Positions 3,373-31,987 of a DNA stretch of 31,987 nt are shown here, piece by piece. Positions within the stretch are counted from its first letter, which is position 1; the number at the start of each line of letters is the position of its first letter. The stretch is from a virus. The notes under the pieces are model-generated. The model was not told where the DNA came from. It worked only from the letters and a program-made list of their open reading frames with translations, and made no database searches. The DNA lies in IMG/VR virus record IMGVR_UViG_3300045988_155672, positions 1-31,987 of that record; one strand, given 5' to 3'. Made by a program: the position numbers and the translations under genes.

Positions 3373-3391
3373 AGAAAACATGTACTATGGA

Positions 3392-3423
3392 GAGGATTCC
3401 AATTAAGGAGTCCTCTTTTTTTT
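3392..3423 (+). terminator. conserved hairpin terminator, copy 2 of 4
   Basis: The 32 nt at 3392-3423 are identical to 2481-2512. Confidence 0.8.
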
Positions 3424-3431
3424 ATCTATAT

Positions 3432-3452
3432 ATCTAATTTATAATAAAATAA
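3432..3452 (+). promoter_or_regulatory. candidate late-type promoter element (A/T)CTAATTTATAATAAAATAA
   Basis: ATCTAATTTATAATAAAATAA here matches AGCTAATTTATAATAAAATAA at 15970-15990. Both follow a copy of the conserved terminator and precede a structural gene. Confidence 0.35.
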
Positions 3453-3458
3453 ACTGTT

Positions 3459-4724: not shown

Positions 4725-4730
4725 AAAGAT

Positions 4731-7310: not shown

Positions 7311-7693
7311 TGGGATTGATAAATAGAAAAGAATTACAATCTAACGCACGTAAAGTTAATAGAAGTAAAAACGGTTCACCTGAATACCAACTACAATGTA
7401 AATGCGTACAATGGTTCAGAAGCAACTATCCTGAATACCTCATCTTCCAAGTACCTAATGAAGCAACCCATAAGAATGGTGAAAAATTCCATAATAGCGG
7501 TACACTAAACGGCGTATCAGATTTAATAATCGTTAAAGATAAACAAATCCTCTTTATTGAGATGAAGTCTGAAAAAGGTGTACAGAGAAGAGAACAATCC
7601 GAATTTGAATATAAGGTAAAAGAACTCGGGTTTGATTATTATATAGTAAGAGATTTTGAAACGTTTAAGAAAATAATTTGTAGTGAACCATGA
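7310..7693 (+). CDS. VRR-NUC domain nuclease
   Basis: GVSDLIIVKDKQILFIEMKSEKGVQRREQSEFEYKVKELGFDYYIV fits the VRR-NUC PD-(D/E)xK pattern (D...ExK...Q). Its start overlaps the upstream stop (TAATG). Confidence 0.8.
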   Translation: MGLINRKELQSNARKVNRSKNGSPEYQLQCKCVQWFRSNYPEYLIFQVPNEATHKNGEKFHNSGTLNGVSDLIIVKDKQILFIEMKSEKGVQRREQSEFEYKVKELGFDYYIVRDFETFKKIICSEP

Positions 7694-7715
7694 AAAGGCA
7701 TATATGACTTCGTTG
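7689..7715 (+). promoter_or_regulatory. promoter-like motif, copy 2 of 6
   Basis: CATGAAAAGGCATATATGACTTCGTTG. It overlaps the VRR-NUC stop codon and ends 9 nt before ATG 7725. Confidence 0.5.
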
Positions 7716-7724
7716 CTATAGAAC

Positions 7725-8537
7725 ATGTCTAACAAAAATGTATTAGTAGGAGAGGCGAAGAATAGTAGCCAACCTACGCAGGAAGTTAAAATTTTTAGTA
7801 GTGAAAAATTCGGTGAGATTAGAACAATGGGTGATACAACTAACCCACTCTTTTGCTTACCCGATGTATGTAGAGCATTATCTGTTGATATAAGTAATGT
7901 TAGAGAAAAGGTAAGAAAGGGGTGGTGCATTAAACACCCCCTTCAGACTAACGGTGGAATCCAAGAAACAACCTTTGTTAATGAATCAGTTTTATATGAT
8001 ATAATTTTCAGTTCGAGAAAAGCTGAAGCTGTTGAGTTCAGGCATTGGGTTACTGATGAAGTTCTACCTATGATTAGAAAGACGGGTGCATATTTAACTA
8101 AAAATACAGCAGAGGCATTAGCAAGTGGAGATATAACAGCTCAGAGAGAATTTATTAAAATGTACTTAACAACTCTTGATGATTTAGAAAAGAAAAATCA
8201 GATGCTACAACAAGCCACTACTAAGATTGAAGAGGATAAACCAAAAGTAGAGTTCCACGATGCTGTACACGATTCAACTAATTTAATGAGTATTCAGGAT
8301 TTTGGTAAGGCTGTTAGTATTGGTGAGAAAACATTATTTAGTGCATTGAGAGATATGGGTATTTTTTATTATGACAAAAGAACTAATCTCCCTTATCAAG
8401 AATATATAAATAGTGGATATTTCAAAGTAATTGAAGGTACGTATAAAAATAAAAGGACAGGGGAAACTATGACATATTTAACTACCAAGATAACAGGTAA
8501 GGGACAGACGTGGTTAACTGATAAATTAAATAAGTAA
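7725..8537 (+). CDS. Bro-N / KilAC (ANT-type) antirepressor-like protein
   Basis: The N-terminus (FGEIRTMGDTTNPLFCLPDVCRALSV ... FRHWVTDEVLPMIRKTGAY) fits Bro-N. The C-terminus (FHDAVHDSTNLMSIQDFGKAV ... NLPYQEYINSGYFKV ... ITGKGQTWL) fits the KilAC/ANT C-terminal domain. Confidence 0.85.
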   Translation: MSNKNVLVGEAKNSSQPTQEVKIFSSEKFGEIRTMGDTTNPLFCLPDVCRALSVDISNVREKVRKGWCIKHPLQTNGGIQETTFVNESVLYDIIFSSRKAEAVEFRHWVTDEVLPMIRKTGAYLTKNTAEALASGDITAQREFIKMYLTTLDDLEKKNQMLQQATTKIEEDKPKVEFHDAVHDSTNLMSIQDFGKAVSIGEKTLFSALRDMGIFYYDKRTNLPYQEYINSGYFKVIEGTYKNKRTGETMTYLTTKITGKGQTWLTDKLNK

Positions 8538-8579: not shown

Positions 8580-9620
8580 TTAATAGTTCTCAGTAGTCCA
8601 ACCTGAAGTAGGAAGTCCACTATTACCTACTGGAATTGTTAATTTAGCAGGTTTACGCATAACTCCCGTTGAAGCTACACCATATACCCAACCATTAAAT
8701 GTATAAGTATTCCACGTGGTTATGTTAGGGGTAGTTACTAAATTAAGAGAAGAGCAATTTTGATAACTATAATAGAATGCTTCAGTACCAACACTTGTAA
8801 CATTAGAGAAATCAGGTGCTGTTGTTAATTTTGTACAACCTTGTAAAAAATGAGCAAAACCATGATCACCAACACTTGTAACATTAGAGAAGTCAGGTGT
8901 AGTAGTTAAAGAAGAACAACCTTCAAGAACATGAGCAAATCCACTACTACCAACTGTTGTAACATTAGAGAAGTCAGGTATTTTTTCTAAAAGGGTACAA
9001 TTCTGAAAGAGTCCAAGAAATCCACCAGCGCCAACAGTTATTAAATTAGGGATACTAATGCGACTAAAAATTAATGAAGTACAACCATAGAAAGAATTAT
9101 AGAATGAATTTCTACCAACTTCTGTAACCCCTTTCATGGTAAAACTACAAGTAGCTATACTACCCCTATTTTTAAACCATTCATAAAAAGCGTAATCAGG
9201 GATTTTAGTAACTGAATTAACGTCTTGATGATTTATCAGTGTTCTAATATCTCCTACTATATTATTCGTAGTACCACTTATATAGAACGAAAAATGTACA
9301 CCATCTCTAAACCTAACATCTGTATTTACTCCCCTTAAGTAAATTATACCACCTGAGGGAATAGTTACAGTAGGTCTTTTACCCGTATCATACTTATTCC
9401 ATGTTTTCTTATCTAAGGAGTACTCGAGGTTAATTTCAGAGTTCATATAATCAGTTGCATAGAATCTACATGCGTCCAATCCATCATTAGAAATATTAAA
9501 ATAATAAGGTTCACTTGCTTTTTTCTCCCACAGCACCTTACCTGCACTATTCGTTATTTTAGTTACTGCTTTACTTCCCAATTTAACCTCAGTAACTTTT
9601 GAAAAATCTATACTACTCAT
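8580..9620 (-). CDS. BspA-type leucine-rich-repeat protein, receptor-binding candidate (paralogue 3, inverted orientation)
   Basis: Repeated (G)CxxLxxxPDFSNVTxVG units. The N-terminal NLEYSLDKKTWNKYD...IYLRGVN and GDIRTLINHQDVNSVTKIPDYAF segments and the C-terminal RKPAKLTIP...GWTTENY are shared with 29422..30405. Confidence 0.7.
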   Translation of the reverse strand: MSSIDFSKVTEVKLGSKAVTKITNSAGKVLWEKKASEPYYFNISNDGLDACRFYATDYMNSEINLEYSLDKKTWNKYDTGKRPTVTIPSGGIIYLRGVNTDVRFRDGVHFSFYISGTTNNIVGDIRTLINHQDVNSVTKIPDYAFYEWFKNRGSIATCSFTMKGVTEVGRNSFYNSFYGCTSLIFSRISIPNLITVGAGGFLGLFQNCTLLEKIPDFSNVTTVGSSGFAHVLEGCSSLTTTPDFSNVTSVGDHGFAHFLQGCTKLTTAPDFSNVTSVGTEAFYYSYQNCSSLNLVTTPNITTWNTYTFNGWVYGVASTGVMRKPAKLTIPVGNSGLPTSGWTTENY

Positions 9621-15682: not shown

Positions 15683-15945
15683 TGGTACAAAAGGATATTA
15701 AATTTTACATATTAGTGGGATTAGGTTTTACAATATCCCTCATAGGTCTTCTCTCCCCTCCAATAGGTATAGTAGATAACAGCGTTTTAGTGGTAACAGG
15801 TTTATTCCTAAGCGTTGCAGGTGGTCTTATTGGTGCTGTCATTCACTTAGACTTCAAAAACCTTTATTTTCATATAGGACCAATGCCAACCAAAATTAAA
15901 GAAGATAAGAAAAAATGCGTAAAAGATGAAGAGGATTCCAAGTAG
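15682..15945 (+). CDS. small two-TM membrane protein
   Basis: ATG 15682 overlaps the upstream stop (TAATG). Two hydrophobic helices (FYILVGLGFTISLIGLL, VVTGLFLSVAGGLIGAVI) and a charged C-terminal tail. Confidence 0.5.
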   Translation: MVQKDIKFYILVGLGFTISLIGLLSPPIGIVDNSVLVVTGLFLSVAGGLIGAVIHLDFKNLYFHIGPMPTKIKEDKKKCVKDEEDSK

Positions 15946-15962
15946 GAGTCCTTTTTTTTTTA
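15931..15962 (+). terminator. conserved hairpin terminator, copy 3 of 4 (overlaps the stop codon of 15682..15945)
   Basis: (G)AGGATTCC-AAGTA-GGAGTCCT followed by T10. The TAG stop lies in the loop. Confidence 0.75.
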
Positions 15963-18097: not shown

Positions 18098-18124
18098 TAT
18101 GAAAGTGAGAATAAAACTTCGTTG
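18098..18124 (+). promoter_or_regulatory. promoter-like motif, copy 3 of 6
   Basis: TATGAAAGTGAGAATAAAACTTCGTTG, 81 nt upstream of ATG 18206. Confidence 0.45.
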
Positions 18125-19130: not shown

Positions 19131-19157
19131 CATGAAAACACGTATATCTCTTCGTTG
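19131..19157 (+). promoter_or_regulatory. promoter-like motif, copy 4 of 6
   Basis: CATGAAAACACGTATATCTCTTCGTTG, 39 nt upstream of ATG 19197. Confidence 0.5.
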
Positions 19158-19196: not shown

Positions 19197-19844
19197 ATGT
19201 CAAAGTTTATAATAACACGCAATTTGAACGGATATAAGTTGCAACAGAGAACTGATAATGGAATGTTTAACGCTTCATACTTCATAGAACAATGGAATGA
19301 GAAGAATAACTCCAATCTGAAGGTAAGTGATTTTATTAAAGAAAAAGACACTCTACGCTTCATGAATATATTAGCTGTTAAAGAAAACCTAAATCACGTT
19401 GGAGAATGTTTTAATGATGGTATAATAGCTGTTAATAATACCGTAACTAATGATGAGGGTATTATTCATACAGAGATTTGGTTTCATCGCTACCTCTTCT
19501 CAGATTTTTTAATATACGTAAATGAAGAGTTAAAATATGAAGCATTGAAGTTCATCACCGATAACTTAATTGATATGAGAAACACCGTAGGCTCTAAATA
19601 CAGAGAATGGGTAAATCTACTCACTACCATTGGAGCTAATCAAACAGATATTAAAACTATTCAATGTAATATAAATATCATCGTATTCGGTAAACATGAA
19701 AAGGATATTAGAAACTCAGCTACATTTGAAGAGTTAACTAAAATACTAGAAATCCAATCAACACTCTCATCACTCATTAAATTAAACATAGCTACCACTC
19801 CAATGGAAGTTTTATCTCATCTTGTTAACCTCTTTAGAAAATAA
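19197..19844 (+). CDS. KilA-N domain protein, paralogue 2 (diverged)
   Basis: YKLQQRTDNGMFNASYFIEQWN ... IWFHRYLFSDFLIYVNEELKYEALKFITDNLIDMR ... IIVFGKHEKDIRNSATFEEL is colinear with the other two paralogues. Confidence 0.65.
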   Translation: MSKFIITRNLNGYKLQQRTDNGMFNASYFIEQWNEKNNSNLKVSDFIKEKDTLRFMNILAVKENLNHVGECFNDGIIAVNNTVTNDEGIIHTEIWFHRYLFSDFLIYVNEELKYEALKFITDNLIDMRNTVGSKYREWVNLLTTIGANQTDIKTIQCNINIIVFGKHEKDIRNSATFEELTKILEIQSTLSSLIKLNIATTPMEVLSHLVNLFRK

Positions 19845-20299
19845 AGTGAAAATTATGAAAAATAACATTAAATTTTTTCTCGGTCAGTATCAACAAGTTA
19901 AGAAAAATTCATTAAAATTCCTCACTTTCATATCCACTTTTTTCAAAAAAAGGCTCTCTTATTCTATAGGAACTATGTCCTATTATAGTTCATTGGAATA
20001 TTCTCATCGAATATCCCAATTCCAATAAGCGGACAATCGTTCAAGTATTTTCTTAGAAACTGTTTAAATAGCGGTTCATTACATTCACCTTGTTACTCAG
20101 TTCTAAAGAACTTCATAAAAACAAAAGAACTTAACGAAAATGAAAAGTACTCATCGTACTCTTCATTCTTCTTATAAGTCCTTCAGTTTACTAAAGAATC
20201 TAAAACAGTTAAAAATACTCAAGTCAATACCTGAAAATACTTCTAAGGTATAAGTAAGGTAAGGATAATTGTACCCTTTTGAATCGGGTGTTTTTTCTT

Positions 20300-20720
20300 T
20301 TCATTTTGAGATTTTTCAAGTTTGGTAGTAGTTGAGAAGTTACTTCAGTTTTCATTGGTAGTAGTTAGTAGATTCGATTCTTCAGTTTGGTAGTTAGTTT
20401 TCTTGAGTTGGTAGGTTAGTAGAGTAGTTTAGTTAATTCCAAGTTAAGTAAATTCACTAGTAGATTCTCAAGTTTACTAGTAGTTTCCTTATTTCCATGT
20501 GTAGAGTAGTTTTAAGAGGTTTAGAGAGGTTTTAACAGTTCATAGGTAGAATTAGTTCAGTGAGGTAGTAAAGTCTTACCAGAGGAGAAATAAACGTACT
20601 TCCAAGGTAGTTAATTCTAGTAGGTAGTTTGGGAGGTAGTAAAGTACTTGTAATTCCATGTGTAGTTAATTAGGTAAGAGACTCGTTTTAACATTCCATA
20701 GTTAAGTAAATTCCAAAAAG
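20300..20720. repeat. C-depleted, G/T-skewed non-coding tract with degenerate GGTAG-type direct repeats
   Basis: Nine exact GGTAG at 20324, 20357, 20389, 20410, 20545, 20564, 20606, 20623 and 20635. Longer repeat pairs are listed in the finding for 20030-20914. No ORF of 60 aa or more is listed on either strand between 20029 and 20913. Confidence 0.8.
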
Positions 20721-20914
20721 TGTAAACGTAAGTTAATGTCGAAGACACTCCATAAACGAAGTGATAATACAATATACTTCCGCTGCGTAATTTTTACATA
20801 CTTAATAGGGTAAACAGTTGAAAATGAGTAATTCCTAAAATTGAGGAGATGGGTGAGTAGCGAAATGCGACGATGCTCTGAATTGTTAACTTTTCAAAAA
20901 TGATACTACTTATT

Positions 20915-20941
20915 CATGAAACTACCAATAAAACTTCGTTG
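20915..20941 (+). promoter_or_regulatory. promoter-like motif, copy 5 of 6
   Basis: CATGAAACTACCAATAAAACTTCGTTG, ending 9 nt before ATG 20951. Confidence 0.5.
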
Positions 20942-20950
20942 TAGTAGTAT

Positions 20951-21265
20951 ATGAACAAAGAAAATTCAATAATAGCGGAGGCGAATAATAGTAACCAAGC
21001 TATGCAGATTTTTAATAATGAGAAATTTGGTGAGATTAGAACATTAGGTGATGGAAACAATCCACTCTTTTGTTTACCTGACGTATGTAGAGCATTATCT
21101 GTTGATATAAGTAATGTTAGAGAAAAGGTAAGAAAGGGGTGGTGCATTAAACACCCCCTTCAGACTAACGGTGGAATCCAAGAAACAACCTTTGTTAATG
21201 AATCAGTTTTATATGATATAATTTTCAGTTCGAGAAAAGCTGAAGCTGTTGAGTTCAGGCATTGA
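20951..21265 (+). pseudogene. truncated Bro-N domain gene (104 codons), possibly still expressed as a stand-alone Bro-N protein
   Basis: Homologous to the N-terminus of 7725..8537. Nt 21083-21264 are identical to 7866-8047. Identity ends exactly at a TGA, where the full-length copy continues WVTDEVLPMIRKTGAY. Confidence 0.6.
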
Positions 21266-21540
21266 ATCTACCGAATGGTGAGTTAGGTATATTAAATGTT
21301 TACAAATGGTTTAGAGATAATAATTTTACGATGAAAAATAACCTACCATACGAAATTCAAAGACGTAAGGGGCTTATGACAGTTAGGTTGGGTAAAGATA
21401 AGTACGGTAGATTAACAAAAACAGCTGTAATAACTGAAAAAGGAGTTAAGTACTACCATGATTTAATAGTGAATAGTCTTAATTGGATAAAAAAGAATTT
21501 ACTCAGCAATCTTCGGAGGAAACTGAGCTTGAGACTCTAA
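21262..21540 (+). CDS. KilAC-like C-terminal fragment ORF (-1 frame relative to the truncated Bro-N)
   Basis: FRDNNFTMKNNLPYEIQRRKGLMTVRLGKDKYGRLTKTAVITEKGVKYY parallels LRDMGIFYYDKRTNLPYQEYINSGYFKV...KITGKGQTWL of 7725..8537. It starts at TTG 21262 or ATG 21331. Confidence 0.4.
   Translation: MNLPNGELGILNVYKWFRDNNFTMKNNLPYEIQRRKGLMTVRLGKDKYGRLTKTAVITEKGVKYYHDLIVNSLNWIKKNLLSNLRRKLSLRL
21489..21495 (+). other. A_AAA_AAG heptamer in the zero frame of ORF 21262..21540
   Basis: Codons are ATA AAA AAG (21487-21495). A -1 shift enters the frame of ORF 21483..21776 (KKEFTQQSSEETE followed by LETLISNR repeats). Confidence 0.45.
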
Positions 21541-21736
21541 TAAGTAACAGGCTTGAGACTCTAATAAGTAACAGGCTTGAGACTCTAATAAGTAACAGGC
21601 TTGAGACTCTAATAAGTAACAGGCTTGAGACTCTAATAAGTAACAGGCTTGAGACTCTAATAAGTAACAGGCTTGAGACTCTAATAAGTAACGGGCTTGA
21701 GACTCTAATAAGTAACAGGCTTGAGACTCTAATAAA
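21528..21736. repeat. 24-bp tandem repeat, about 8.7 copies, nearly perfect
   Basis: Unit CTTGAGACTCTAATAAGTAACAGG. There is one A>G substitution in copy 7 (AACGGG). One frame is open on each strand (LETLISNR on +, RVSSLLLI on -). Confidence 0.95.
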
Positions 21737-21783
21737 AAAGATTTTGGTAGAATATTTATTAAAGGATTTAAAATAATTGAGAG

Positions 21784-22392
21784 ATGGAATTAAACGTAAA
21801 AAAACAAAAAGTGTTTGAGTTGTTGGGTAGAGAAGAAAATCAAAACCTATCAACAGAAGAATGGTTAAATAAGTTAAATGGTGAAGGTCTTAATGTAAGC
21901 CGAGGAACCTTTTTCAGATACAAAAAAGAATTTACTCAACTTCAATCTTCGGGTGAGTTAAAATTTGAAAACGGCGATTCCTGCAAATTACAACATATAG
22001 CTAAAGTGCTACATGTCGAAAATCGAGTAGTTAAAGAAGAAGCCCCAACACCAAAAGAAAAAGAGATTGATATATGGAAGCACATTGATGAAGTAGATAA
22101 ACGAGAAGAGGTCCCAATATCAAAAGAAGAAGATGATGTGGAGATAGATTTTAGTGGAAGTGATTTAACAGATGATGAGAGGGAAGAGTTAAACATATTA
22201 TTAGATGGATTTAAGACTTGTAGGAGTGTATTTGAAGCTATGGAGTGTTGCAGGCAATTAGACATGTTTGTACAGAATAAAAAGAAAAAGATAGGTAAAT
22301 ATGTTAAAGAAAAAGTATCTACCTTATACGAATGGCAGAAGTTGTTTTTTACCAACTATGGGTTAGATAAGAGAATTTGTTTTGAGGAATAA
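21784..22392 (+). CDS. HTH-containing protein with an acidic centre (function unknown)
   Basis: The N-terminus (LSTEEWLNKLNGEGLNVSRGTFFRYKKEF) looks like a small HTH. The middle is acidic and the C-terminus is Cys-containing. The gene lies immediately downstream of the tandem array. Confidence 0.45.
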   Translation: MELNVKKQKVFELLGREENQNLSTEEWLNKLNGEGLNVSRGTFFRYKKEFTQLQSSGELKFENGDSCKLQHIAKVLHVENRVVKEEAPTPKEKEIDIWKHIDEVDKREEVPISKEEDDVEIDFSGSDLTDDEREELNILLDGFKTCRSVFEAMECCRQLDMFVQNKKKKIGKYVKEKVSTLYEWQKLFFTNYGLDKRICFEE

Positions 22393-22437
22393 AAAAAATA
22401 AATTAGCTACTATATATAATAGGTAATAAATAGCACG

Positions 22438-22863
22438 ATGAAACTAACGAAGAATTTTACATTAGAGGAATTAATGTGGAGTGATACAGCTAATAGACTC
22501 CACATTAACAACACCCCATCAAAAGAGGTAGTAAATAAATTAAAAAAATTAGCAACGGATATTCTACAACCTATAAGAGACACATACGGACTACCAATTA
22601 AAATAAGTTCAGGATATAGATGTTCAGAATTAAATAAAAAGATTGGTGGAGTAAGAAACAGTCAGCATGTGTTAGGAGAAGCTGCTGATTTAGTTGTCGG
22701 TGATGTGGTACAAAATTTAGAACTCTTTAATCTAATAAAAACGATGATTGAGCATGGAGAGATAACTGTGGGGCAACTAATCAATGAATACGGAGGTAAA
22801 TGGGTACACGTATCATTACCAAGAACAAATAAAAAAAATAATCAAATAATAAACATATATTAA
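22438..22863 (+). CDS. endolysin, peptidase M15 (zinc D-Ala-D-Ala carboxypeptidase / L-Ala-D-Glu peptidase family)
   Basis: FTLEEL...ISSGYRCSELNKKIGGVRNSQHVLGEAADL...WVHVS contains the H..D...H zinc-ligand pattern typical of M15 phage lysins. Confidence 0.85.
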   Translation: MKLTKNFTLEELMWSDTANRLHINNTPSKEVVNKLKKLATDILQPIRDTYGLPIKISSGYRCSELNKKIGGVRNSQHVLGEAADLVVGDVVQNLELFNLIKTMIEHGEITVGQLINEYGGKWVHVSLPRTNKKNNQIINIY

Positions 22864-22872
22864 AAACAACAC

Positions 22873-23364
22873 ATGAAGAAGATTGTAATAACAGTATTAG
22901 TAACAACAGTATTAGTAACGGTTCTGACAGCTATCATAATAAAAAATTCCTTAAATAAAGCACTAACAAAAGTCGAACCGATTACCATAACAAAAACAAT
23001 AATAGAACCTAAATTCGATACGATATACCATAATCATTACGATACAATAAAAGTTAAAACAATTCAAACAGATACCCTAATAGAACATCATACAGATTCG
23101 GTACTCATACAACTTCCAATTAACAATTATATAATAGATACAACAATAACCGATACAACTTCCATAACGTCATTAGAAGCCCACATAAAAGGTTTTAACG
23201 TTACTGTGGATAGTTTACTCCTTATAACAAAAATAATCCCTGAGGTTAAAGAAAATGTCCGAAAAAGTTATAGAATTAAAGACAAAATAGGAGTGGGAAT
23301 TGGAATAGGATATGGAACATGTGGAGTTGGAATGATGGTAGGAATAATGTACAAAATAAATTAA
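22873..23364 (+). CDS. membrane protein adjacent to the endolysin (holin or spanin candidate)
   Basis: N-terminal TM (IVITVLVTTVLVTVLTAIII) and a C-terminal Gly-rich hydrophobic segment (IGVGIGIGYGTCGVGMMVGIM). Confidence 0.4.
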   Translation: MKKIVITVLVTTVLVTVLTAIIIKNSLNKALTKVEPITITKTIIEPKFDTIYHNHYDTIKVKTIQTDTLIEHHTDSVLIQLPINNYIIDTTITDTTSITSLEAHIKGFNVTVDSLLLITKIIPEVKENVRKSYRIKDKIGVGIGIGYGTCGVGMMVGIMYKIN

Positions 23365-23365
23365 A

Positions 23366-23396
23366 AGGAGAGTCAATTAAGATTCTCCTTTTTTTA
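23366..23396. terminator. bidirectional hairpin terminator
   Basis: AGGAGAGTC-AATTAA-GATTCTCCT followed by T7. The right arm overlaps the 3' end of the minus-strand gene. Confidence 0.6.
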
Positions 23397-23577
23397 TGTA
23401 CAGTTTGCAATGACATTCGTTTTTTTCCCTGTAATCAGAACAAGGACAATGCTTATCATACGAATCATTATGACAAGGACAGTCCCCATCACATGCTTCA
23501 ATTCTTTTTAATATCGCATTAACAATTTTCTCATTTGGATTTAACATGAACCCGTCTTTAATAAAAAAATTTTTCAT
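23377..23577 (-). CDS. ferredoxin-thioredoxin reductase catalytic-subunit-like small Fe-S protein
   Basis: CPCHNDSYDKHCPCSDYREKNECHCKLYI matches the FTR-B signature CPC...CPC-X8-CHC (cyanobacterial CPCVPMRERKECHCMLFL). It is one of only two credible minus-strand genes. Confidence 0.6.
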   Translation of the reverse strand: MKNFFIKDGFMLNPNEKIVNAILKRIEACDGDCPCHNDSYDKHCPCSDYREKNECHCKLYIKKGES

Positions 23578-23632
23578 AGTTTTTGATTATTTATATATTT
23601 ATGTTTATAATATAGATATAAAAATAAAACTA

Positions 23633-24163
23633 ATGAGAAATAAAAGAATAGACGATTCATACGAAGAAACGGATTATGAATTAACAAAACAATTTTTTAA
23701 CGATAAGGGGTTCCGCTGTGAGATAGCTCCACTTTATTCCCTTTATGATTATATTGTAACAGGTAACGGTCAAACGTGGTATGTTGAAGCTAAATATAGG
23801 AATATAAGTTATTATAACGAATCTTTACGTCCATGGCTTATAAACAAACAAAAAGTGGAAAAATTACAAAAATTAGAGGGCAATGTGATTCTCTTCTACG
23901 CATTCCCTAACGATGGTAAGGTTCTCCTCTATAATATAAAATCCCTTAACACTTCCAAAACCTCAGCAGTAAAAATTAAACTCAACCCCTCTAATGCAAC
24001 AAAAGACGAAACTAATATTGAACTCCCTCTACCTACCAATAACCTAAGAGATTTTGAATGTGGTAAAAATTACAGTACAATATTAGAAAAAAAATTGATT
24101 AAATACTGTGTTGAAAATGATGTGATTAAAAAAGAAGTTAGTAGATGGGTGAGAAAAAAATAA
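23633..24163 (+). CDS. PD-(D/E)xK nuclease, Hjc/resolvase-like
   Basis: EETDYELTKQFFNDKGFRCEI...YDYIVTGNGQTWYVEAKYR shows an E...D...ExK arrangement like archaeal-type Holliday junction resolvases. The start is moved to ATG 23633 to avoid overlap with the minus-strand gene. Confidence 0.5.
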   Translation: MRNKRIDDSYEETDYELTKQFFNDKGFRCEIAPLYSLYDYIVTGNGQTWYVEAKYRNISYYNESLRPWLINKQKVEKLQKLEGNVILFYAFPNDGKVLLYNIKSLNTSKTSAVKIKLNPSNATKDETNIELPLPTNNLRDFECGKNYSTILEKKLIKYCVENDVIKKEVSRWVRKK

Positions 24164-24266
24164 AATGAAAAAAAATATCGAACCGATTAAACCTTTTATT
24201 TTGGAAGTTGTCAAAAGAGAAAACAAAACAAATTAAATAAATAACTAAATTAAAATTTTTAAAATT

Positions 24267-24731
24267 ATGGAAAAACAAGAAATTGTACCAATGCACATTA
24301 GAGAAGCAAAGTTTAACCTAAGCGATTACATGGTTAGAAGAAAAATCAAAGAGACTTATCAGAGAAAAGAAGATGATGGGTTAAGCATTAGAAGTATAAT
24401 AGACAAGATATGGTACTTCTATCCTGAGGCAGATATTACAGTTAAAAACGAAAATGAGATAATCGTTAACAGAGAGGGTAGAATAATCCCAAAATTCAAC
24501 AACTACTCTTATATGTCTCCTAATGAAGCTGACGAGGCTATTGAAAGAGATGATTATATGTATCAAGAGTTAATGGAGAGAAAAGTTGATACTCACATTG
24601 AAGAGGGATATGATTCAAGTAGAATTATGATGGACGAACTAATGGAAGCTATATGGTCAATAGAACCCCAAGCAGAGATTGATGTAATGGACTTAAATCA
24701 CTTAGTAGCTAAATATTCTTGGGAGGAATAA
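24267..24731 (+). CDS. acidic hypothetical protein
   Basis: 154 aa, D/E-rich, with an internal motif duplication (DKIWYFYPEADITV / EAIWSIEPQAEIDV). Confidence 0.4.
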   Translation: MEKQEIVPMHIREAKFNLSDYMVRRKIKETYQRKEDDGLSIRSIIDKIWYFYPEADITVKNENEIIVNREGRIIPKFNNYSYMSPNEADEAIERDDYMYQELMERKVDTHIEEGYDSSRIMMDELMEAIWSIEPQAEIDVMDLNHLVAKYSWEE

Positions 24732-24739
24732 CTGACTTG

Positions 24740-24776
24740 GAGATGGGGGATATAACACAGCCCCCACCTCTTTTTT
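24740..24776 (+). terminator. rho-independent terminator
   Basis: GAGATGGGGG pairs with CCCCCACCTC (one mismatch), followed by T6. Confidence 0.6.
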
Positions 24777-24798
24777 ATTTTTTAAGGAAATTTAATTT

Positions 24799-25227
24799 AT
24801 GATAGAGGGAAAACTGAAACTTTACGAATATATAAAAGCAAAAGGTGGAACATATCCTTGGCATCATTTTATTGTAGTTAATGATATTGAGTTAATAGAG
24901 GCGTTTGAAACCGATAGAAAAGAGATAATGAAGTGGAGAGGGGAATTGGAAGACGATGAATTATTAACTTATTATAAGGTGTTCAAATTAGATTATTGCT
25001 ACACATTATTCACTCAACCAATAGAAGAGGTGGAAGAAGATATAAACAATCTTGTAATAGGTAAAGATTATAAATTGGAAGTGATAGTTAAAATTAAAAA
25101 CCACATACAACAAATCCAAGACGACATACAAAAGTCAATGGAGATAGATAAATGGGTTAACGTTTTCACCAATAAGCCCTACCTAAAATCACTAAGATGG
25201 ATATTATACGATTATTTTAATAAATAA
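24799..25227 (+). CDS. hypothetical protein
   Basis: 142 aa ORF. No motif recognised. Confidence 0.4.
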   Translation: MIEGKLKLYEYIKAKGGTYPWHHFIVVNDIELIEAFETDRKEIMKWRGELEDDELLTYYKVFKLDYCYTLFTQPIEEVEEDINNLVIGKDYKLEVIVKIKNHIQQIQDDIQKSMEIDKWVNVFTNKPYLKSLRWILYDYFNK

Positions 25228-25273
25228 TTCTATATAACTTTTCTTTAATTTTAAATTTTTTTGTTTTACGAGG

Positions 25274-25303
25274 AGGATTCCAATTAGGAGTCCTCTTTTT
25301 TTA
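25274..25303 (+). terminator. conserved hairpin terminator, copy 4 of 4
   Basis: GAGGATTCC-AATTA-GGAGTCCTC followed by T7. Confidence 0.8.
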
Positions 25304-25314
25304 CACAGCTAAAT

Positions 25315-25341
25315 CATGAAAACACATAGAAGACTTCGTTG
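25315..25341 (+). promoter_or_regulatory. promoter-like motif, copy 6 of 6
   Basis: CATGAAAACACATAGAAGACTTCGTTG. The whole terminator-plus-motif module 25274-25345 is colinear with 2481-2555. Confidence 0.5.
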
Positions 25342-25379
25342 CTATAGCTATAAACTTTTTATAAATTAAATTTTTTATT

Positions 25380-26144
25380 ATGGTTAAAAAACAAAATTCA
25401 TCTAACTTTACTTTAGTTAGAAAAATGGAGAACTTTGACATCAACCAAAGAACCTCCGATGGAATGTTTAATGCAAGTTATTTGTTAAATCAATGGAACA
25501 GCGTGGGAGGTAACACGAGAAGAAGAATGGACAAGTATCTTAGTAGTTCAAGAACCCAAGAATTTATCCAAACTATCAAGGAAAAAGAGGGGATAATCGA
25601 GACTTCAAAAAACGGCGATTCCTGCAAATTAGCTGAATGGTCAAAAATGACCAATGTTGGAAATCAAGTAGTTACGAAATCCTACAATGATGGGGTAATT
25701 TGCTTCAAAAAAGGGCGAACATTAAAAGGTAAAGGAAGTACACCTGATGAATATTGGTTCCACCCATTCTTGTTTATCGACTTTGCCATGTACTTAAACC
25801 CAAAGTTCCAATATGACGTTATTAAATTCGTTTATGACAATTTAGTTAACTTGAGGGTTGACATAGCCAAAAGGTACAAAGCATGGACTTCAACGTTAAA
25901 GAGTGCAGGAGCTAAAGAACCTGAAGACTATCAACGTATAGCTAAATGTATGAACTATGTTGTATTCGGGAAGCATTTTGAGGGTATCAGAGACCACGCA
26001 ACAACAGAAGAGATAGCGGAGATGCAGAAACAGGAAGACTTCATTATTAAAAGTGTTGAATATGGACTCTTCACTACCCTTGAGCAAATCAGGGGTTATC
26101 TAAAAAAAGAGTATGATAAGAATAATAATCCAAGGTGTTTTTAA
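25380..26144 (+). CDS. KilA-N domain protein, paralogue 3
   Basis: Closely similar to 2578..3372 along its whole length, except for a replaced central segment (SKNGDSCKLAEWSKMTNVGNQ). Confidence 0.75.
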   Translation: MVKKQNSSNFTLVRKMENFDINQRTSDGMFNASYLLNQWNSVGGNTRRRMDKYLSSSRTQEFIQTIKEKEGIIETSKNGDSCKLAEWSKMTNVGNQVVTKSYNDGVICFKKGRTLKGKGSTPDEYWFHPFLFIDFAMYLNPKFQYDVIKFVYDNLVNLRVDIAKRYKAWTSTLKSAGAKEPEDYQRIAKCMNYVVFGKHFEGIRDHATTEEIAEMQKQEDFIIKSVEYGLFTTLEQIRGYLKKEYDKNNNPRCF

Positions 26145-26174
26145 CTAAAGAAAAATAATCTAAACCATGTGGAG

Positions 26175-26208
26175 AGAGAGATTCATTAGTTTGGGTCTCT
26201 CTTTTTTT
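26175..26208 (+). terminator. rho-independent terminator
   Basis: AGAGAGAT pairs with GTCTCTCT (one G-U pair), followed by T7. Confidence 0.6.
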
Positions 26209-26260
26209 ATATTGTTTTTTGTTTTAAGTAGCTATTTTATAGATAAATAGTTAAATAAAT

Positions 26261-27520
26261 ATGGAATATAATGGTTTACCTGTTTTTAATGCTTATTTAA
26301 CAAGTGATGATGAAGAGTTGTTATGTAATAGCTTGGTTGACGACCCTGCTGTATGTAAAGATTTTTTATTGTTTGCTAAGGATAAGAAAAAACAGTTGAT
26401 ATTTACGAATACGGAGCAACACATCGTAACAGGTGTAAGTATTTTAGCTGATACACCAATATACAGAGCAGATGAATATGGGGGGTATTATGTGGTATTT
26501 ACCAAGGAAGAGATTAAGAAGTTCGTAGAAAAATATAATAAAAAAGGTTATCAAAATCTAATATCACTTCAACACGATGGGAAGCCCCTTGATGGAATAA
26601 CTATGATAGAATCTTACTTCATTAACAAGGAGAGGGGAATATATCCAAAAGAATTTGAAGATTGCCCTGATGGTTCATGGATCACTTCTTACCATGTAGA
26701 TAATGAAGACCTATGGGAGTTATTAAAAACTGATAAGGTTAATGGATTTTCAATAGAGATAGTAGCAACGTTAAAACCAAAACCTGATGAAGAGTTGATG
26801 TACGATGACCCTGATTTAATAGATGACTTGATTGAATGGTTGGAGTTCGATGAGGTTAAAAAAAAAATAACAAGAGGGAATGTTAAAGATATTATAGATA
26901 GCAATAGGCAAGTTGATATAACGGTAGGGGAGCAAGTACTTCATAATCAACAGATATTCCAAATAGGTAAAGATAATGGTGGGAATGATGTGGTAGTAGT
27001 ATATGACCCAAATAAAACAACGTGGGATACAATAGAGTTAAAACAAATTAACAGTCTCACATTATTAGATACAGAATTAGAGAATTTTAACTTTAACCTA
27101 TCATGGAAGCAGATAATAAATAACCTCACAGAACTGACAATAACCGATACCAAGCCAACCTCTCAAAAAGGTAAGAACGATTTAAATTATATTATAGAAA
27201 ATAATTTATACACATTGATTTCTTATGATGATGAAGAGGAGGGAGCAGCAACAGGATTTAGGACTTGTTTTGTATCTTCTTGGGGATATACTGTTAAAGG
27301 TAATGAGTGTATAAGGATTTATGAATATTCAGGAGCAACAAGAACAGGTTTTCAAGATGGTAGGTGGAGATTATTATTAACGAGGAGGATTATGGACTTG
27401 AAAGCAGCTGATTATATGGACGCTATTAAAACAGCACCACCACTATATAACGGTGAATTAAAAGCAGGCAGTGGAATTAACGGAACTATGGAATCAGTAA
27501 TTAAAATTTCTAACTTATGA
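26261..27520 (+). CDS. XkdF-like putative prohead protease with a C-terminal extension
   Basis: The N-terminal ~175 aa (VTGVSILADTPIYRADEYGGYYVVFTKEEIKKFVEKY...SLQHDG...ESYFI...GFSIE) resemble the XkdF/S78-like phage protease family. The C-terminal half is unknown. Confidence 0.45.
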   Translation: MEYNGLPVFNAYLTSDDEELLCNSLVDDPAVCKDFLLFAKDKKKQLIFTNTEQHIVTGVSILADTPIYRADEYGGYYVVFTKEEIKKFVEKYNKKGYQNLISLQHDGKPLDGITMIESYFINKERGIYPKEFEDCPDGSWITSYHVDNEDLWELLKTDKVNGFSIEIVATLKPKPDEELMYDDPDLIDDLIEWLEFDEVKKKITRGNVKDIIDSNRQVDITVGEQVLHNQQIFQIGKDNGGNDVVVVYDPNKTTWDTIELKQINSLTLLDTELENFNFNLSWKQIINNLTELTITDTKPTSQKGKNDLNYIIENNLYTLISYDDEEEGAATGFRTCFVSSWGYTVKGNECIRIYEYSGATRTGFQDGRWRLLLTRRIMDLKAADYMDAIKTAPPLYNGELKAGSGINGTMESVIKISNL

Positions 27521-27993
27521 AAATAAATACTGAGACATGGGTAGAAGAATCCCCACATCTTTATGACTTGGGAAGAGATATTGCAAACGCTTATAAAAAC
27601 CAATTAAGAAAAGACGATGCAGTAGCCTCAGGTGATTTAGTTAATTTTAAGTGGGACATTGTTAATACACCCGATTCGTTAAAACTCCAATTCACTCTAC
27701 CCTTTTATTGGAAGTATATAGAAAATGGAAGAGGTCCAACAATTAGAAGTGGTAATGGTTCGTTAAGAAAATCAATAACCGAATGGATACAAGATAAAGG
27801 GATTGTAGTGCCCCCTAAAATGACGATAGAGCAACTTTCTTTTCTTATTAGTAGAAAAATACATAGAGAGGGATATGAGGGAAGAGAATGTCTAAAAAAG
27901 GCTAAAATTAAAAGTAAACCCTTAATAGAGGATTTTGTTAATACGATAGTAAAATTATATAATAACGATATTTATAAAGAGATAAATTTATGA
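27517..27993 (+). CDS. HK97 gp10-like virion morphogenesis/neck protein
   Basis: FYWKYIENGRGP...ISRKIHREG resembles the gp10-family core (yvEfGt). It overlaps both neighbours (ATGA). Confidence 0.4.
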   Translation: MKINTETWVEESPHLYDLGRDIANAYKNQLRKDDAVASGDLVNFKWDIVNTPDSLKLQFTLPFYWKYIENGRGPTIRSGNGSLRKSITEWIQDKGIVVPPKMTIEQLSFLISRKIHREGYEGRECLKKAKIKSKPLIEDFVNTIVKLYNNDIYKEINL

Positions 27994-28373
27994 GTGTAGA
28001 ACCATACGAAGTAGTTTACGCAAGATTACTAAACAGACAAGATACAGCGGAAGAGTGGAAAAACGTTAACCCTATACTTGAAAAAGGAGAATGGGGGTAT
28101 GACACTACCAATAATAAAATTAAATTAGGTGATGGAGTAACCGCTTGGAATGATTTAGCTTATTTTAGTGGAGAGGGTGGTGGAAGTGGAACTGAGTATA
28201 AACCAGGAACAGGTATTAAATTTACAAACGGTAATCAAATCAGTGTTAATGCAGACTTGAAGACTTTAACTTTTACTAATGGGATTATAGAGGTTAACAC
28301 TACCAATATAGCCACAGTGAATTATGTGGACGGTCTTGTAGGTAATATTTATAATACTCTTAAAACGATTTAA
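27990..28373 (+). CDS. short tail fibre protein with an Mtd/hyaluronidase-type N-terminal domain
   Basis: RQDTAEEWKNVNPILEKGEWGYDTTNNKIKLGDGVTAWNDLAYF matches the conserved tail-fibre N-terminal motif (W..NP.L..GE.G.DT...K.GDG.T.W..L). The same motif opens the 30511 ORF. Confidence 0.6.
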   Translation: MSVEPYEVVYARLLNRQDTAEEWKNVNPILEKGEWGYDTTNNKIKLGDGVTAWNDLAYFSGEGGGSGTEYKPGTGIKFTNGNQISVNADLKTLTFTNGIIEVNTTNIATVNYVDGLVGNIYNTLKTI

Positions 28374-28375
28374 CA

Positions 28376-29386
28376 ATGGCAATAGCAGAAGAAATAACGA
28401 GAATACAAACAGCAAAAACTGATATTAAAACGGTAGTAGCAAGTAAGGGAGTAACTATTCCTGATTCTGCTCTCATCAGTGAATATTCAACCTATATAAA
28501 TAATATTAACGTAAAGCCATGTAAAAAAATTCCTTTAAGAGAATTATGGTTGGAACGTATTGTTGATGATGATAAGGAAAATGCTGTTTTAACTATTACC
28601 AATTTTACTGATGGTAAAAACCTTGAGTATTCATTAGATGAAACCAATCAATGGAAAACCTATATAGATGGTGAGAAGATAACAATCAAACCTCATCAAA
28701 GAATTTACTTAAGAGGTGATAATCCTAAGGGGTTTAATAAAAGTTTTGAGACCGCTTCTGTTTTAACTGTTAATAAACCTCTTAAAGCAGGGGGTAATAT
28801 AATGTCCCTTATAAGTGCAAAAAATTTTAACGATATAACAGTCGTACCTGATTGGTCATTCACTTGCTTATTCCAAAATCAACTCAATATTAAAAGCGTA
28901 CCTGATTGCTCTAATATAATAGTAGTAGGTAGGAATGGTTTTGCTAATTGTTTTCAAAATTCAGGAGTAACAAAAGGGGGTAGCTTTACAAGTTTAACAG
29001 ATGCAAGCACTGATGCGTTCTCTTATGCGTTCTCAGGGTGTAATGATTTAGCTGAGGCTTGCGAGTTCCCTGTTTTAACTACTATTGCAAAAAATACATT
29101 CTATAATGCTTATGCAACTTGTCCTTTATTAAAAAACGGTGGTGATTATTCAAGCATAACCAAAATCGATGGAGAGGCTGCCTTTTACCAAGCATTCAGC
29201 GGAACTAATGTTACTATAATAAAAACTCCTAATATAACTGAATGGAATGAAAAATGCTTTACTGAATGGTTAACTAAAATACCCACATCAGGAGTAGTAC
29301 GTAAACCTGCTAAATTAACAATTCCGATAGATAGTGATAGTGGAGTTCCTACGGGTTGGACTGTCGAAAATTATGATGAAAACTAA
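28376..29386 (+). CDS. BspA-type LRR protein, receptor-binding candidate (paralogue 1)
   Basis: NLEYSLDETNQWKTY...IYLRGDN, Cys-containing LRR units, and the C-terminus SGVVRKPAKLTIPIDSDSGVPTGWTVENY shared with the other two paralogues. Confidence 0.65.
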   Translation: MAIAEEITRIQTAKTDIKTVVASKGVTIPDSALISEYSTYINNINVKPCKKIPLRELWLERIVDDDKENAVLTITNFTDGKNLEYSLDETNQWKTYIDGEKITIKPHQRIYLRGDNPKGFNKSFETASVLTVNKPLKAGGNIMSLISAKNFNDITVVPDWSFTCLFQNQLNIKSVPDCSNIIVVGRNGFANCFQNSGVTKGGSFTSLTDASTDAFSYAFSGCNDLAEACEFPVLTTIAKNTFYNAYATCPLLKNGGDYSSITKIDGEAAFYQAFSGTNVTIIKTPNITEWNEKCFTEWLTKIPTSGVVRKPAKLTIPIDSDSGVPTGWTVENYDEN

Positions 29387-29421
29387 ATATTAAGAATAAA
29401 TAATTTATATAAAAAAATATT

Positions 29422-30405
29422 ATGATTAAAAGTTATTATAAAGTTTATAGGGTGTTTCCTGACCCTGAATATGTATGGGTGAAGAATGAGAAGACAAGTG
29501 TTGTTCAGTTTAGTACAACTAATTATATGAACTCTCCAATTAACCTTGAGTACTCATTAGATAAAACAACATGGAACAACTACGATATGAGTAATAAGCC
29601 TACTGTAATAGTTCCTGCAGGTGGTTACATTTACTTAAGAGGTGTTAATACAGGGGTTACGTTTAATAGTGATTTACATTTTGGATTTAGTTTTGAAGAC
29701 TTCGGAATTAGTCAACCCTTTTCAACAGGTGGGGATATTAGAACACTGTTAAATTACCAAGACGTTAATTCGGTTACTAAAATCCCTGATTACGCTTTTT
29801 ATGACGTTTTTAGAAGTGGTGGTAATATAACTTCTTGTACTTGGGATATGAGTGGAATTACAGAAGTTGGTGCTAATGGATTCGATAGTTGTTTCGACGG
29901 TTGTAGTAATTTAACAACTGCACCTGACTTCTCTAATGTTACAAGTATTGGTGCTAAAGGATTCAATGCTTGTTTCAACGGTTGTAGTAATTTAACAACT
30001 ACACCTGACTTCTCTAATGTTACAAGTATTGAGTATGCTTCATTTAACTACTGTTTCACTCAATGTTCTTCCTTAACAATTCCACCTGACTTCTCTAAGA
30101 TTACAGGAGCTAAGTTTACTTCATTTAATAGTTGTTTCTATAAATGTATTAAATTAACTACTGCACCTGACTTCTCTAATATTACGAGTCTTGAGGGTGG
30201 AAGTACCTTCCTTAGCTGTTTCAAAGGTTGTTCTTCCCTTAACTTAGTAACTGCACCTAATATAACAACGTGGGATAATAATTATTTTACTGATTGGTTA
30301 GTTAACGTTGCTTCATCAGGAGTAGTACGTAAACCTGCTAAATTAACAATTCCAACAGATAGTACGAGTGGTGTTCCTACGGGTTGGACAACTGAGAACT
30401 ATTAA
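29422..30405 (+). CDS. BspA-type LRR protein, receptor-binding candidate (paralogue 2)
   Basis: Four to five FxxCFxGCSxLTTxPDFSN(V/I)TS units. It contains an 81-bp tandem duplication: 29899-29949 and 29980-30030 differ at one base. Confidence 0.7.
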   Translation: MIKSYYKVYRVFPDPEYVWVKNEKTSVVQFSTTNYMNSPINLEYSLDKTTWNNYDMSNKPTVIVPAGGYIYLRGVNTGVTFNSDLHFGFSFEDFGISQPFSTGGDIRTLLNYQDVNSVTKIPDYAFYDVFRSGGNITSCTWDMSGITEVGANGFDSCFDGCSNLTTAPDFSNVTSIGAKGFNACFNGCSNLTTTPDFSNVTSIEYASFNYCFTQCSSLTIPPDFSKITGAKFTSFNSCFYKCIKLTTAPDFSNITSLEGGSTFLSCFKGCSSLNLVTAPNITTWDNNYFTDWLVNVASSGVVRKPAKLTIPTDSTSGVPTGWTTENY

Positions 30406-30510: not shown

Positions 30511-31987
30511 ATGGTAGAATATAAAAGGATTAAATTAAGGAGAGACATAACCACTAATTGGTATGAAGCTAACCCTGTGTTATTAGAGGGAGAGTTAGGT
30601 TATGATAGTACTAAAAAACAATTTAAGATAGGTGATGGAGTTAGTGAGTGGAGAAAATTAACTTATATAACGGTAAATCAAGAAGCGGTACAAGAAATCC
30701 TAAACACGGGTTACTATACCAAAGAGCAGACGGATAATGTAATAAAAACCGCTTTAACACCTATACAAGAAGAGTTAAAAACTAAGGTTGATAATTCCAC
30801 CTATGAAACAAAAATAAATGAAATAGAGGGACAATTACAAGCTATACCTGACGTTCCAACTAAGGTATCCCAATTAGAAAATGACTCGAAATTTCAAACC
30901 AATACACAGGTAGAGACAACTATTACTACTGAGATAGGTAAATTGGCAACAGTAGCAAAAACGGGTTCATATAACGATTTAACAGATAAACCAACAGCTC
31001 CTGGTGCACCTACTAAGACGAGTGAGTTGGAGAACGATTCGGATTTTCAAAATGGTACTCAGGTTCAAGCAACTGTTACTACTGAGATAAATAAATTAGC
31101 AACGGTAGCAAAGACAGGTTCATACACTGATTTAACAAACAAGCCTACCATACCCACAGTACCAACCAACGTATCTGCTTTTACTAATGATGCTAAATAT
31201 CAAAACGATGAACAGGTACTATCAACTGTTAATTCTGAAGTAACTAAATTAAACATACCTACTAAAACAAGTCAATTAGAAAACGACTCTAATTTTGATA
31301 CTATAACTAATGTTGATAATAAAATAAGTAAAGGGGATACTGCAACGTTAACTTCTGCTAAGGCTTATACAGATGAAAAGGTGGGAGGAATTAAAGTACC
31401 TACCAATGTATCTGAATTAACTAATGACAGTGGATATTTAACAGAAACGAATCTTAAAACAATTAACAATGAATCGATAGTAGGAACAGGTAATATTGAG
31501 ATTAAAGGTGGTGGAGGAAGTTCTAATGATTGGTTCGGTTCGGAAGCAGACTTTAACAAAATCCCGACAGACCAACTAAGTCAAGATACCAATTATTATA
31601 TAGCTGTTAAATTAGATTATGAAAAGGATATAGCTAATAAACCATTCGTAGCTAAAACTGTCTCTCAATTACCTAATACAGCTGATTACATAAATCGTGT
31701 TAAAACAATCAACGGTACTAAGATAACAGGTAGTGGTGATATTAACATAATGAAAATAATAGACAGCTATCAATGGTGGGGAACTCAAGAGGCTTATGAT
31801 GCTTTAACAGATGAACAGAAAAAAGAATACCTTTATTATTATATAGAGGGTAATGGTGGTGGATCAGGTGGAGACATACCAACAAAAGTATCCCAATTAG
31901 AGAATGATGCAAATTACCAAAACGACACCCAAGTACAAACAACTGTTAATACTGCGATAACAAAACTAAGTATTCCAACTAAGACAA
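30511..31987 (+). CDS. long tail fibre protein (5' part; continues at nt 1-290 through the end overlap)
   Basis: My own translation gives MVEYKRIKLRRDITTNWYEANPVLLEGELGYDSTKKQFKIGDGVSEWRKLTYI, followed by many (V/I)PTKxSxLxNDxxxQ repeats. The ORF has no stop before the window end, which explains its absence from the ORF track. Confidence 0.75.
   Translation, partial: MVEYKRIKLRRDITTNWYEANPVLLEGELGYDSTKKQFKIGDGVSEWRKLTYITVNQEAVQEILNTGYYTKEQTDNVIKTALTPIQEELKTKVDNSTYETKINEIEGQLQAIPDVPTKVSQLENDSKFQTNTQVETTITTEIGKLATVAKTGSYNDLTDKPTAPGAPTKTSELENDSDFQNGTQVQATVTTEINKLATVAKTGSYTDLTNKPTIPTVPTNVSAFTNDAKYQNDEQVLSTVNSEVTKLNIPTKTSQLENDSNFDTITNVDNKISKGDTATLTSAKAYTDEKVGGIKVPTNVSELTNDSGYLTETNLKTINNESIVGTGNIEIKGGGGSSNDWFGSEADFNKIPTDQLSQDTNYYIAVKLDYEKDIANKPFVAKTVSQLPNTADYINRVKTINGTKITGSGDINIMKIIDSYQWWGTQEAYDALTDEQKKEYLYYYIEGNGGGSGGDIPTKVSQLENDANYQNDTQVQTTVNTAITKLSIPTKT

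Follow-up and report, generated by a model that had tools for sequence, protein, structure and literature searches.

The window analysed here, a stretch of 31,987 nucleotides of phage DNA, carries a tandem array at 21527..21735 on the plus strand, between the remains of an antirepressor gene and a gene for a 202-aa protein (21784..22392, +) whose ATG at 21784 lies 48 nt beyond the end of the array. Tandem Repeats Finder reports a period of 24 bp, 98% matches, no indels and a score of 411 for 8.7 copies, a copy number that comes from one assembly and may be wrong. Read unit by unit from 21528, the array consists of eight full units, all CTTGAGACTCTAATAAGTAACAGG (LETLISNR) except unit 7, in which the sole substitution of the array, A>G at 21693, gives LETLISNG (R>G in the open frame), and of a partial ninth unit (CTTGAGACTCTAATAA) that runs into AAAAG. 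The near-perfect 24-bp array of 8.7 copies with a single substitution, as claimed in a preliminary description of this DNA, is thus confirmed, as is every other factual statement made there, and GAGACTC, which had been said to occur in each unit, is present in every one of them. Across the whole window, nine sites match the 16-nt core of the unit with zero to two mismatches, all of them inside the array; outside it there is one match with three mismatches, where 0.6 would be expected by chance at up to three mismatches.

The array is contained in a plus-strand frame, 21483..21776, that is open for 97 codons and reads LDKKEFTQQSSEETE(LETLISNR)6 LETLISNG LETLISNR LETLIKKILVEYLLKDLK*, so the stop-free (LETLISNR)n frame noted in the same description does run through the array. 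The sole possible start of this frame is TTG at 21483, with no in-frame ATG, GTG or TTG between it and the array. Its product is on record as a gene in none of the assemblies of the collection; the flanking genes of the same 31987-nt contig are on record. Modelled from the single sequence with AlphaFold2, the translated array forms one continuous helix (pLDDT 90.7). An ORF on the minus strand (21503..21853), which translates the array as (LLLIRVSS)n, was discarded, since it runs antisense over the beginning of the 202-aa gene and all but two of the other genes lie on the plus strand.

The surrounding genome has a low GC content (~32%), and nearly all of its genes are on the plus strand. They include the large terminase (11246), portal (13658), tape measure (15999), M15 endolysin (22438) and protease (26261) genes, together with several KilA-N and Bro-N genes. 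The contig ends overlap (1-36 equals 31952-31987), which suggests a complete circular assembly, and a 96-bp coding tandem repeat runs across them (1-228 and 30853-31987), a sign that the assembly is circular or terminally redundant and was closed within a gene that contains repeats. A blastn search against GenBank phages returned only two short stretches, in the endolysin gene and in a ferredoxin-thioredoxin-reductase-like gene, with matches in Prevotella Lak and crAss-like phages. The latter gene is a 66-aa cysteine-rich ORF (23377-23577, -) that resembles the catalytic chain of ferredoxin-thioredoxin reductase and shares 70-73% DNA identity with crAss-like phages and Prevotella Lak megaphages. 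Two or three paralogous genes with 81-bp (27-aa) repeats and a match to phrog_9915 lie in opposite orientation at 8580-9620 (-) and 28376-30405 (+); their inverted repeats I1-I6 are 74-79% complementary, and the paralogs could be substrates for inversion or for receptor-binding diversity.

Two related contigs, L006 (32.7 kb) and L007 (33.3 kb), are syntenic with the window at 88-92% DNA identity. A module of 421-aa, 859-aa and endonuclease-like 127-aa genes (3391-7721 in the window, 13727-18059 in L006) differs in map place: in both relatives it sits between a 142-aa gene and the protease gene, and its breakpoints coincide with repeated terminator and promoter elements. At the locus of the array, both relatives have an intact upstream antirepressor of 260 aa (Bro-N plus ANT, ending ...LNWIKKD*), followed by small paralogous genes that precede the homolog of the 202-aa gene; runs of N leave the exact gene order there partly uncertain, and the segments cited below are contiguous sequence. 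Gene a, found in L006, L007 and a third contig, L014, encodes 78 aa (MKYNIRKEKVF...KYKREFTQLQSSEETELETLIKKILVEYLLKNLK*) and has one LETLI unit. Gene b (L007 1783..2091) starts with ATG and encodes 102 aa, MELNVKKQKVF...FFRYKKEFTQLQSSEETE(LETLINNR)3LETLIKKILVEYLLKNLK*, with a 24-bp array of 3.7 copies that match at 100%. The unit of gene b, CTTGAGACTCTAATAAATAACAGG, differs from the unit of the window at the same single base in every copy, AAT in all copies of L007 against AGT in all copies of the window, and the two arrays must therefore have been homogenised or expanded within each lineage.

The intact repeat genes are paralogs of the N-terminal domain of the 202-aa protein. In particular, we infer that gene b joins the 5' part of a 202-aa-type gene to the 3' part of gene a, as expected from an unequal crossover in the shared GAATTTACTCAACTTCAATCTTCGG. 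The segment encoding KKEFTQLQSSGE in the 202-aa gene (21926..21961, +) has its DNA in common with 21489..21521, just upstream of the array, and is likely to mark the crossover site of gene b in the relatives. The homology between this segment and KKEFTQQSSEE (21489-21521), already proposed in the preliminary description, is therefore real at the DNA level and has a ready source, because the repeat ORF of the window (21483..21776) is the 3' remnant of gene b. The remnant comprises the KKEFTQQSSEETE segment, the array and the tail LETLIKKILVEYLLKDLK*, and has its intact counterpart in L007 1783..2091. That the frame was coding at least ancestrally, as had been suggested, is borne out by the presence of the unit in intact ORFs of the relatives that are paralogous to the N-terminal domain of the downstream gene.

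The tail itself (21720..21776, +) is conserved in L006, L007 and L010, and appears to be the single-copy ancestor of the repeat unit. Across the 60 nt compared, it differs by one base from L006 and L007. In L010, the most distant relative (62% protein identity), the upstream ORF ends ...LIADKIESLIKKILVEYLLKK and the tail reads IESLIKKILVEYLLKK; relative to the window it shows a synonymous double change, CTA>TTG, and an in-frame 6-nt indel. Because these changes are synonymous or in frame, the tail appears to be protein-coding and under purifying selection, as judged from few sequences belonging to three or four lineages only. The L010 contig starts exactly at its tail ORF, which would fit a putative IESLIADK array of its own. 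Beyond these contigs the family is small. A profile of the repeat proteins (A2) matched only the 78-aa protein of L006 among 5.8 billion proteins; scans of IMG/VR with the 202-aa protein, the repeat unit and the conserved 3' flank, and of JGI metagenomes with the 3' flank and a profile of the 202-aa protein (A1), yielded no relatives; and a scan of GTDB genomes with A1 gave no match, hence no host was identified.

Immediately upstream of the array, three ORFs in three different frames meet: a Bro-N ORF, a KilAC fragment and then the repeat ORF. The first (20951..21265, +; 104 aa) is a truncated, Bro-N-only ORF of a second antirepressor gene (Pfam Bro-N, 1.4e-12; BLASTP 82%; repeat family D4). 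Its stretch 21008..21264 is 95% identical to 7791..8047 of an intact paralog, a 270-aa antirepressor with Bro-N and KilAC domains (7725..8537, +), which would be the source of this patch or the partner to it. The second ORF (21253..21540, +) is a C-terminal KilAC (ANT) fragment in a frame other than that of the Bro-N fragment; it matches Pfam ANT at E 3.8e-4 over profile positions 40-105 of 108 and has 91% DNA identity to L006 9224..9466. The split antirepressor is not accounted for by an alternative genetic code with reassigned TGA or TAG, since three different stop codons follow in that frame and deletions explain the junctions.

A three-way comparison places two such junctions in the window. 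The first (J1, 21260..21264, +) lies at the microhomology CATTG and leads from the end of the Bro-N domain straight into the middle of KilAC, with a shift of frame and a TGA next at 21263..21265; ~430 bp of L006 (8792..9224) are without counterpart and ~200 bp stand in their place, a net loss of ~230 bp. Gene conversion from the paralog at 7725..8537 probably preceded or accompanied this deletion, because the Bro-N patch is 95% identical to that gene. The second junction (J2, 21485..21495, +) connects the 3' end of the antirepressor, TGGATAAA, to gene b, AAAGAATTTACTCA (TGGATAAA|AAAGAATTT), out of frame by one. With the ~680 bp lost there (L007 1241..1921) went the stop codon of the antirepressor, the intergenic spacer behind it, gene a and ~140 bp from the start of gene b. 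Both junctions are present with identical sequence in L005, an independent assembly from another sample with 206x coverage, and are therefore not assembly errors. Thus, the host gene of the array is an intact ATG-started ORF of 102 aa in L007, and in the window its 5' half has been deleted. Since this half is missing, the ORF of the array is probably no longer an expressed gene in this genome; the earlier coding interpretation accordingly stands for the ancestor, given the intact ATG-started ORFs of the relatives, and probably does not hold for the present phage.

The 202-aa protein downstream is a paralog of the lost 5' half of the repeat gene and combines an N-terminal winged-helix-like domain, an acidic linker and a conserved C-terminal domain. 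Among 5.8 billion proteins it has only three other homolog clusters, at 62-74% identity, and an exhaustive HMMER search with the A1 profile found five proteins, none of them annotated and three of them standalone versions of the C-terminal domain. Neither Pfam nor PHROG contains an initiator family that matches it. Its best sequence matches in the PDB are to the Fur winged helix (E 0.055-0.12, non-significant), and its AlphaFold2 model is poor as a whole (pLDDT 55), the N-terminal ~70 residues alone reaching ~80; Foldseek of the model against the PDB gives winged-helix matches only, at non-significant E values above 0.2. Two standalone relatives of the C-terminal domain, P0006 and P0007 (135-136 aa), have tandem duplications in their linkers (KVNSEH twice in P0006, VET repeats in P0007), so that linkers prone to repeats may be characteristic of this small family. 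The 202-aa protein also lacks 24 residues (KYKVGGE.FNKM.ED.KPPF.NKEELW) that are kept in all three homologs, with the gap at 22075-22085, and 5-10 further residues are missing from its acidic linker. The 24-residue gap is flanked by two W-K codon pairs (IDIWK...EELWK), which suggests, from the alignment, that it may be another microhomology deletion in this lineage.

As to transcription, a promoter-like motif, ATGAAA-N12-CTTCGTTG, has its nearest copy upstream of the array at 20916..20941 (+), and no terminator-like site was found in 19800..22500. The array is therefore probably transcribed from the 20916 motif, as leader or intercistronic RNA of an mRNA that also carries the 202-aa and endolysin genes. 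A scan for sigma-70-type promoters gave a single plus-strand site, at 19890..19918, and none within the array or shortly before it. Altogether, ATGAAA-N12-CTTCGTTG occurs six times in the window (2525-2550, 7690-7715, 18099-18124, 19132-19157, 20916-20941 and 25316-25341) where none would be expected, always on the plus strand and 2-57 nt upstream of a gene start. Behind five of its copies lie KilA-N, Bro-N or antirepressor genes, and behind the remaining one a gene that starts at 18206; the motif looks like a putative phage-specific promoter or regulator site. A conserved hairpin followed by a T-run, GAGGATTCCAATTAAGGAGTCCTCTTTTTTTT, is present in four copies (2476-2512, 3387-3423, 15926-15962 and 25268-25304; families D13-D15) and looks like a putative intrinsic terminator. 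At 2476 and 25268 this terminator-like hairpin directly abuts the promoter-like motif downstream of it, which gives the KilA-N genes the look of self-contained cassettes. Scans of the window for Rfam families and tRNAs were negative, and the array was rejected as a structured RNA: its folding z-score of -2.87 goes with a centroid that is essentially unpaired, as adjacent repeat units will give.

The 1.1 kb upstream of the Bro-N fragment (19845-20950) contain no convincing gene and are rich in GGTAG, TAGTAG and TTGGTAG repeats (Tandem Repeats Finder, 20378-20420). The region is kept in L006, L007 and L013, and its counterpart in L006 (8133-8216) has a period of 24-25 bp in 3.4 copies. It also holds the sole local sign change of the GC skew, from about -0.3 to +0.4 near 20200-20300. 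This region is a candidate origin or non-coding RNA region on these sequence features, and would be a better place than the array for an origin.

Outside the array, contigs from other samples match the window either fully or with just three mismatches, and they show that the array itself is variable. L001 (6755 nt, sample ERZ1749371) differs from window positions 21638..28392 by two mismatches only, both of which result from a shift of the G-variant unit; this unit is the last full one in L001 and the second-to-last in the window. L003 (SRR1761770) places the G-variant unit as L001 does, which is its sole mismatch in 2868 nt, and L002 is identical to the window across 3754 nt. Among the relatives, the unit is present in one copy in gene a of L006, L007 and L014, in 3.7 copies in gene b of L007 and in 8.7 copies in the window. 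The array-only differences, the copy numbers of 1, 3.7 and 8.7 and the lineage-specific base shared by all copies point to a minisatellite with gain and loss of units, a fast-changing one that is most likely driven by replication slippage. The recent expansion or homogenisation envisaged in the preliminary description is supported accordingly, L001 and L003 having array structures that differ from that of the window and no other mismatches to it.

We therefore consider it probable that the array is an unstable in-frame coding minisatellite of the tail of a small phage gene, now held in a start-less remnant. Coding minisatellites change by slipped-strand mispairing or by unequal recombination. 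The ancestral protein would have had a winged-helix-like N-terminal domain followed by a tail ..SSEETELETLIKKILVEYLLK.LK, and the array would have arisen by repeated duplication of a 24-bp piece of its C-terminal helix. In the relatives, where the unit is translated, each copy would add eight helix residues between the DNA-binding-like domain and the hydrophobic tail. The identity of the units would then reflect ongoing gain and loss by replication slippage or unequal recombination, and not selection for a DNA-binding site. In this genome, two microhomology-mediated, out-of-frame deletions have disrupted the upstream antirepressor and cost the repeat gene its promoter-proximal half. Properties of an in-frame minisatellite are found here: the unit is a multiple of three within an open frame, its number and arrangement vary, and the flanking coding sequence appears to be under purifying selection in the few sequences that include the L010 tail. 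The longest array (8.7 copies) occurs in exactly the genome whose ORF is truncated, which fits relaxed constraint and would also fit a new role at the DNA or RNA level.

Other explanations have to be weighed against this one. An origin of the array, or at minimum of its length, in the misassembly of a short repeat is extremely unlikely, even though every other short-read assembly breaks in it: L001, L002, L003 and L005, all of which contain the array, and L008, another independent short-read assembly, have a contig start or end within it, and a sixth contig, L014, ends at the unit core in gene a. The unperturbed periodic run in the array is 166 nt by our own calculation, longer than the usual k-mer sizes. 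Four independent samples nevertheless show at least two to four consecutive units with identical flanks, and the related array of L007 is short enough for single reads to span. The array is thus real, and its exact copy number alone is in doubt, because the other assemblies all break inside it. We also think it unlikely that the remnant is still translated and functional, either from TTG 21483 or by a -1 frameshift at A_AAA_AAG. This heptamer (21489..21495) was made by J2, has the slippery form X_XXY_YYZ and is in phase with the frame of the KilAC fragment, from which a -1 slip leads exactly into the 97-codon open repeat frame; the same heptamer serves in dnaX, the classic bacterial case of a -1 site. 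After such a slip the KilAC fragment (from ATG 21331) would continue into EFTQQSSEETE(LETLISNR)n...LKDLK as a helical repeat protein of ~149 aa, and the remnant genotype, as far as the left junction is concerned, occurs in at least two samples. Against this, the heptamer came about as a by-product when the deletion junction formed, and it is missing from the relatives, whose antirepressor ends ...LNWIKKD* with a separate gene next, so that the two frames are not conserved together. The fold of 21480..21560 gives no stimulatory RNA structure downstream (z = 0.02 relative to shuffles), the upstream frame is a fragment too, preceded by a premature stop, the TTG-started product does not figure in the gene records of the collection, and the fused product would lack the winged-helix domain of the intact protein. 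A more elaborate possibility, which we regard as very improbable, is that the repeat is a tunable helical spacer (~12 A per unit) and a slippage-driven contingency locus, rescued here by A_AAA_AAG, or that the paralogs bind their own unit in the manner of lambda O.

The preliminary description had also likened the array to iterons next to an initiator gene, and the analysis gives this idea no support. As origin iterons, or as an array of binding sites for the winged-helix domain of the 202-aa protein or its paralogs, comparable to ori-lambda in the O gene, the repeat would act at the level of DNA. About nine head-to-tail direct repeats with an odd palindrome do stand beside a gene with a winged-helix-like N-terminus, the 8.7 units of 24 bp fall in the range of the several same-orientation direct repeats of ~17-24 bp that characterize such origins, and no replication gene is recognised anywhere in the window. 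Iterons of the lambda type are likewise located in coding sequence and variable in number, with four versus six copies between relatives that add 13 residues to O (PMC7466680); since lambda-type origins lie within a gene, a coding location alone is no argument against iterons. What argues against them is that copy number and position are not conserved, ranging from 1 through 3.7 to 8.7 copies in close relatives, with units that are identical and not degenerate; that no Rep or O-type initiator gene is adjacent, the 202-aa protein lacking any initiator family match in Pfam or PHROG and its Fur-type matches being non-significant; and that the unit is absent elsewhere in the window. The cumulative GC skew makes no turn at the array, the local sign change falling ~1.3 kb upstream in the non-coding GGTAG region, and the ~50 nt of AT-rich sequence 3' of the array have to be seen against 68% A+T genome-wide. 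In addition, the sequence of the unit is accounted for by the tail, whose amino acids are conserved while its DNA in L010 diverges. We conclude that the array is most probably not a replication origin, and hold either form of the DNA-level explanation to be highly improbable.

The coding minisatellite carries a caution, in that an iteron-like, near-perfect repeat beside a DNA-binding-like gene turned out to be a hypermutable coding repeat in a gene graveyard. It is also a breakpoint of short-read assemblies in this phage group and, being the only difference of two contigs of other samples from the window, could serve as a strain marker. The region as a whole shows an accessory region of a gut phage being remodelled, on very short time scales, through small paralogous genes, deletions at microhomologies and slippage of units. 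Should one of the minority explanations prove true, the locus would exemplify a helical spacer of variable length or a deletion-born frameshift site.

Several known systems share features with the locus. The decay of a phage antirepressor is seen in the two fragments upstream of the array, which match Bro-N and KilAC and have an intact paralog at 7725..8537; the copy here is internally deleted and frameshifted, and the array is not derived from the antirepressor. The dnaX-type -1 site has the identical in-phase heptamer, and the -1 frame is open here for 94 codons, but no downstream stem-loop is detected, and the site is junction-born and unconserved in the relatives. The iterons of ori-lambda (PMC7466680) are direct repeats in coding sequence, by or in the gene of a DNA-binding-like protein, where extra repeats add residues; unlike the units of the window, they are non-identical, fixed in number and position, and associated with an AT-rich unwinding region and a known initiator, none of which applies or is demonstrable here. 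The closest likeness would be to the in-frame coding minisatellites (VNTRs) of bacterial and phage genes, with which the array shares a unit that is a multiple of three, a frame that is translated in relatives, near-identical units homogenised within each lineage, copy numbers of 1, 3.7 and 8.7 among close relatives and contigs that differ in the array only. It departs from them in that the host ORF here is without its 5' half, so that the repeat is stranded in a remnant, and in that the unit is a helical octapeptide of a small winged-helix-like protein and not part of a surface or tail-fibre protein. The array is thus a further instance of a kind of feature that is already known, situated in a decayed accessory region.
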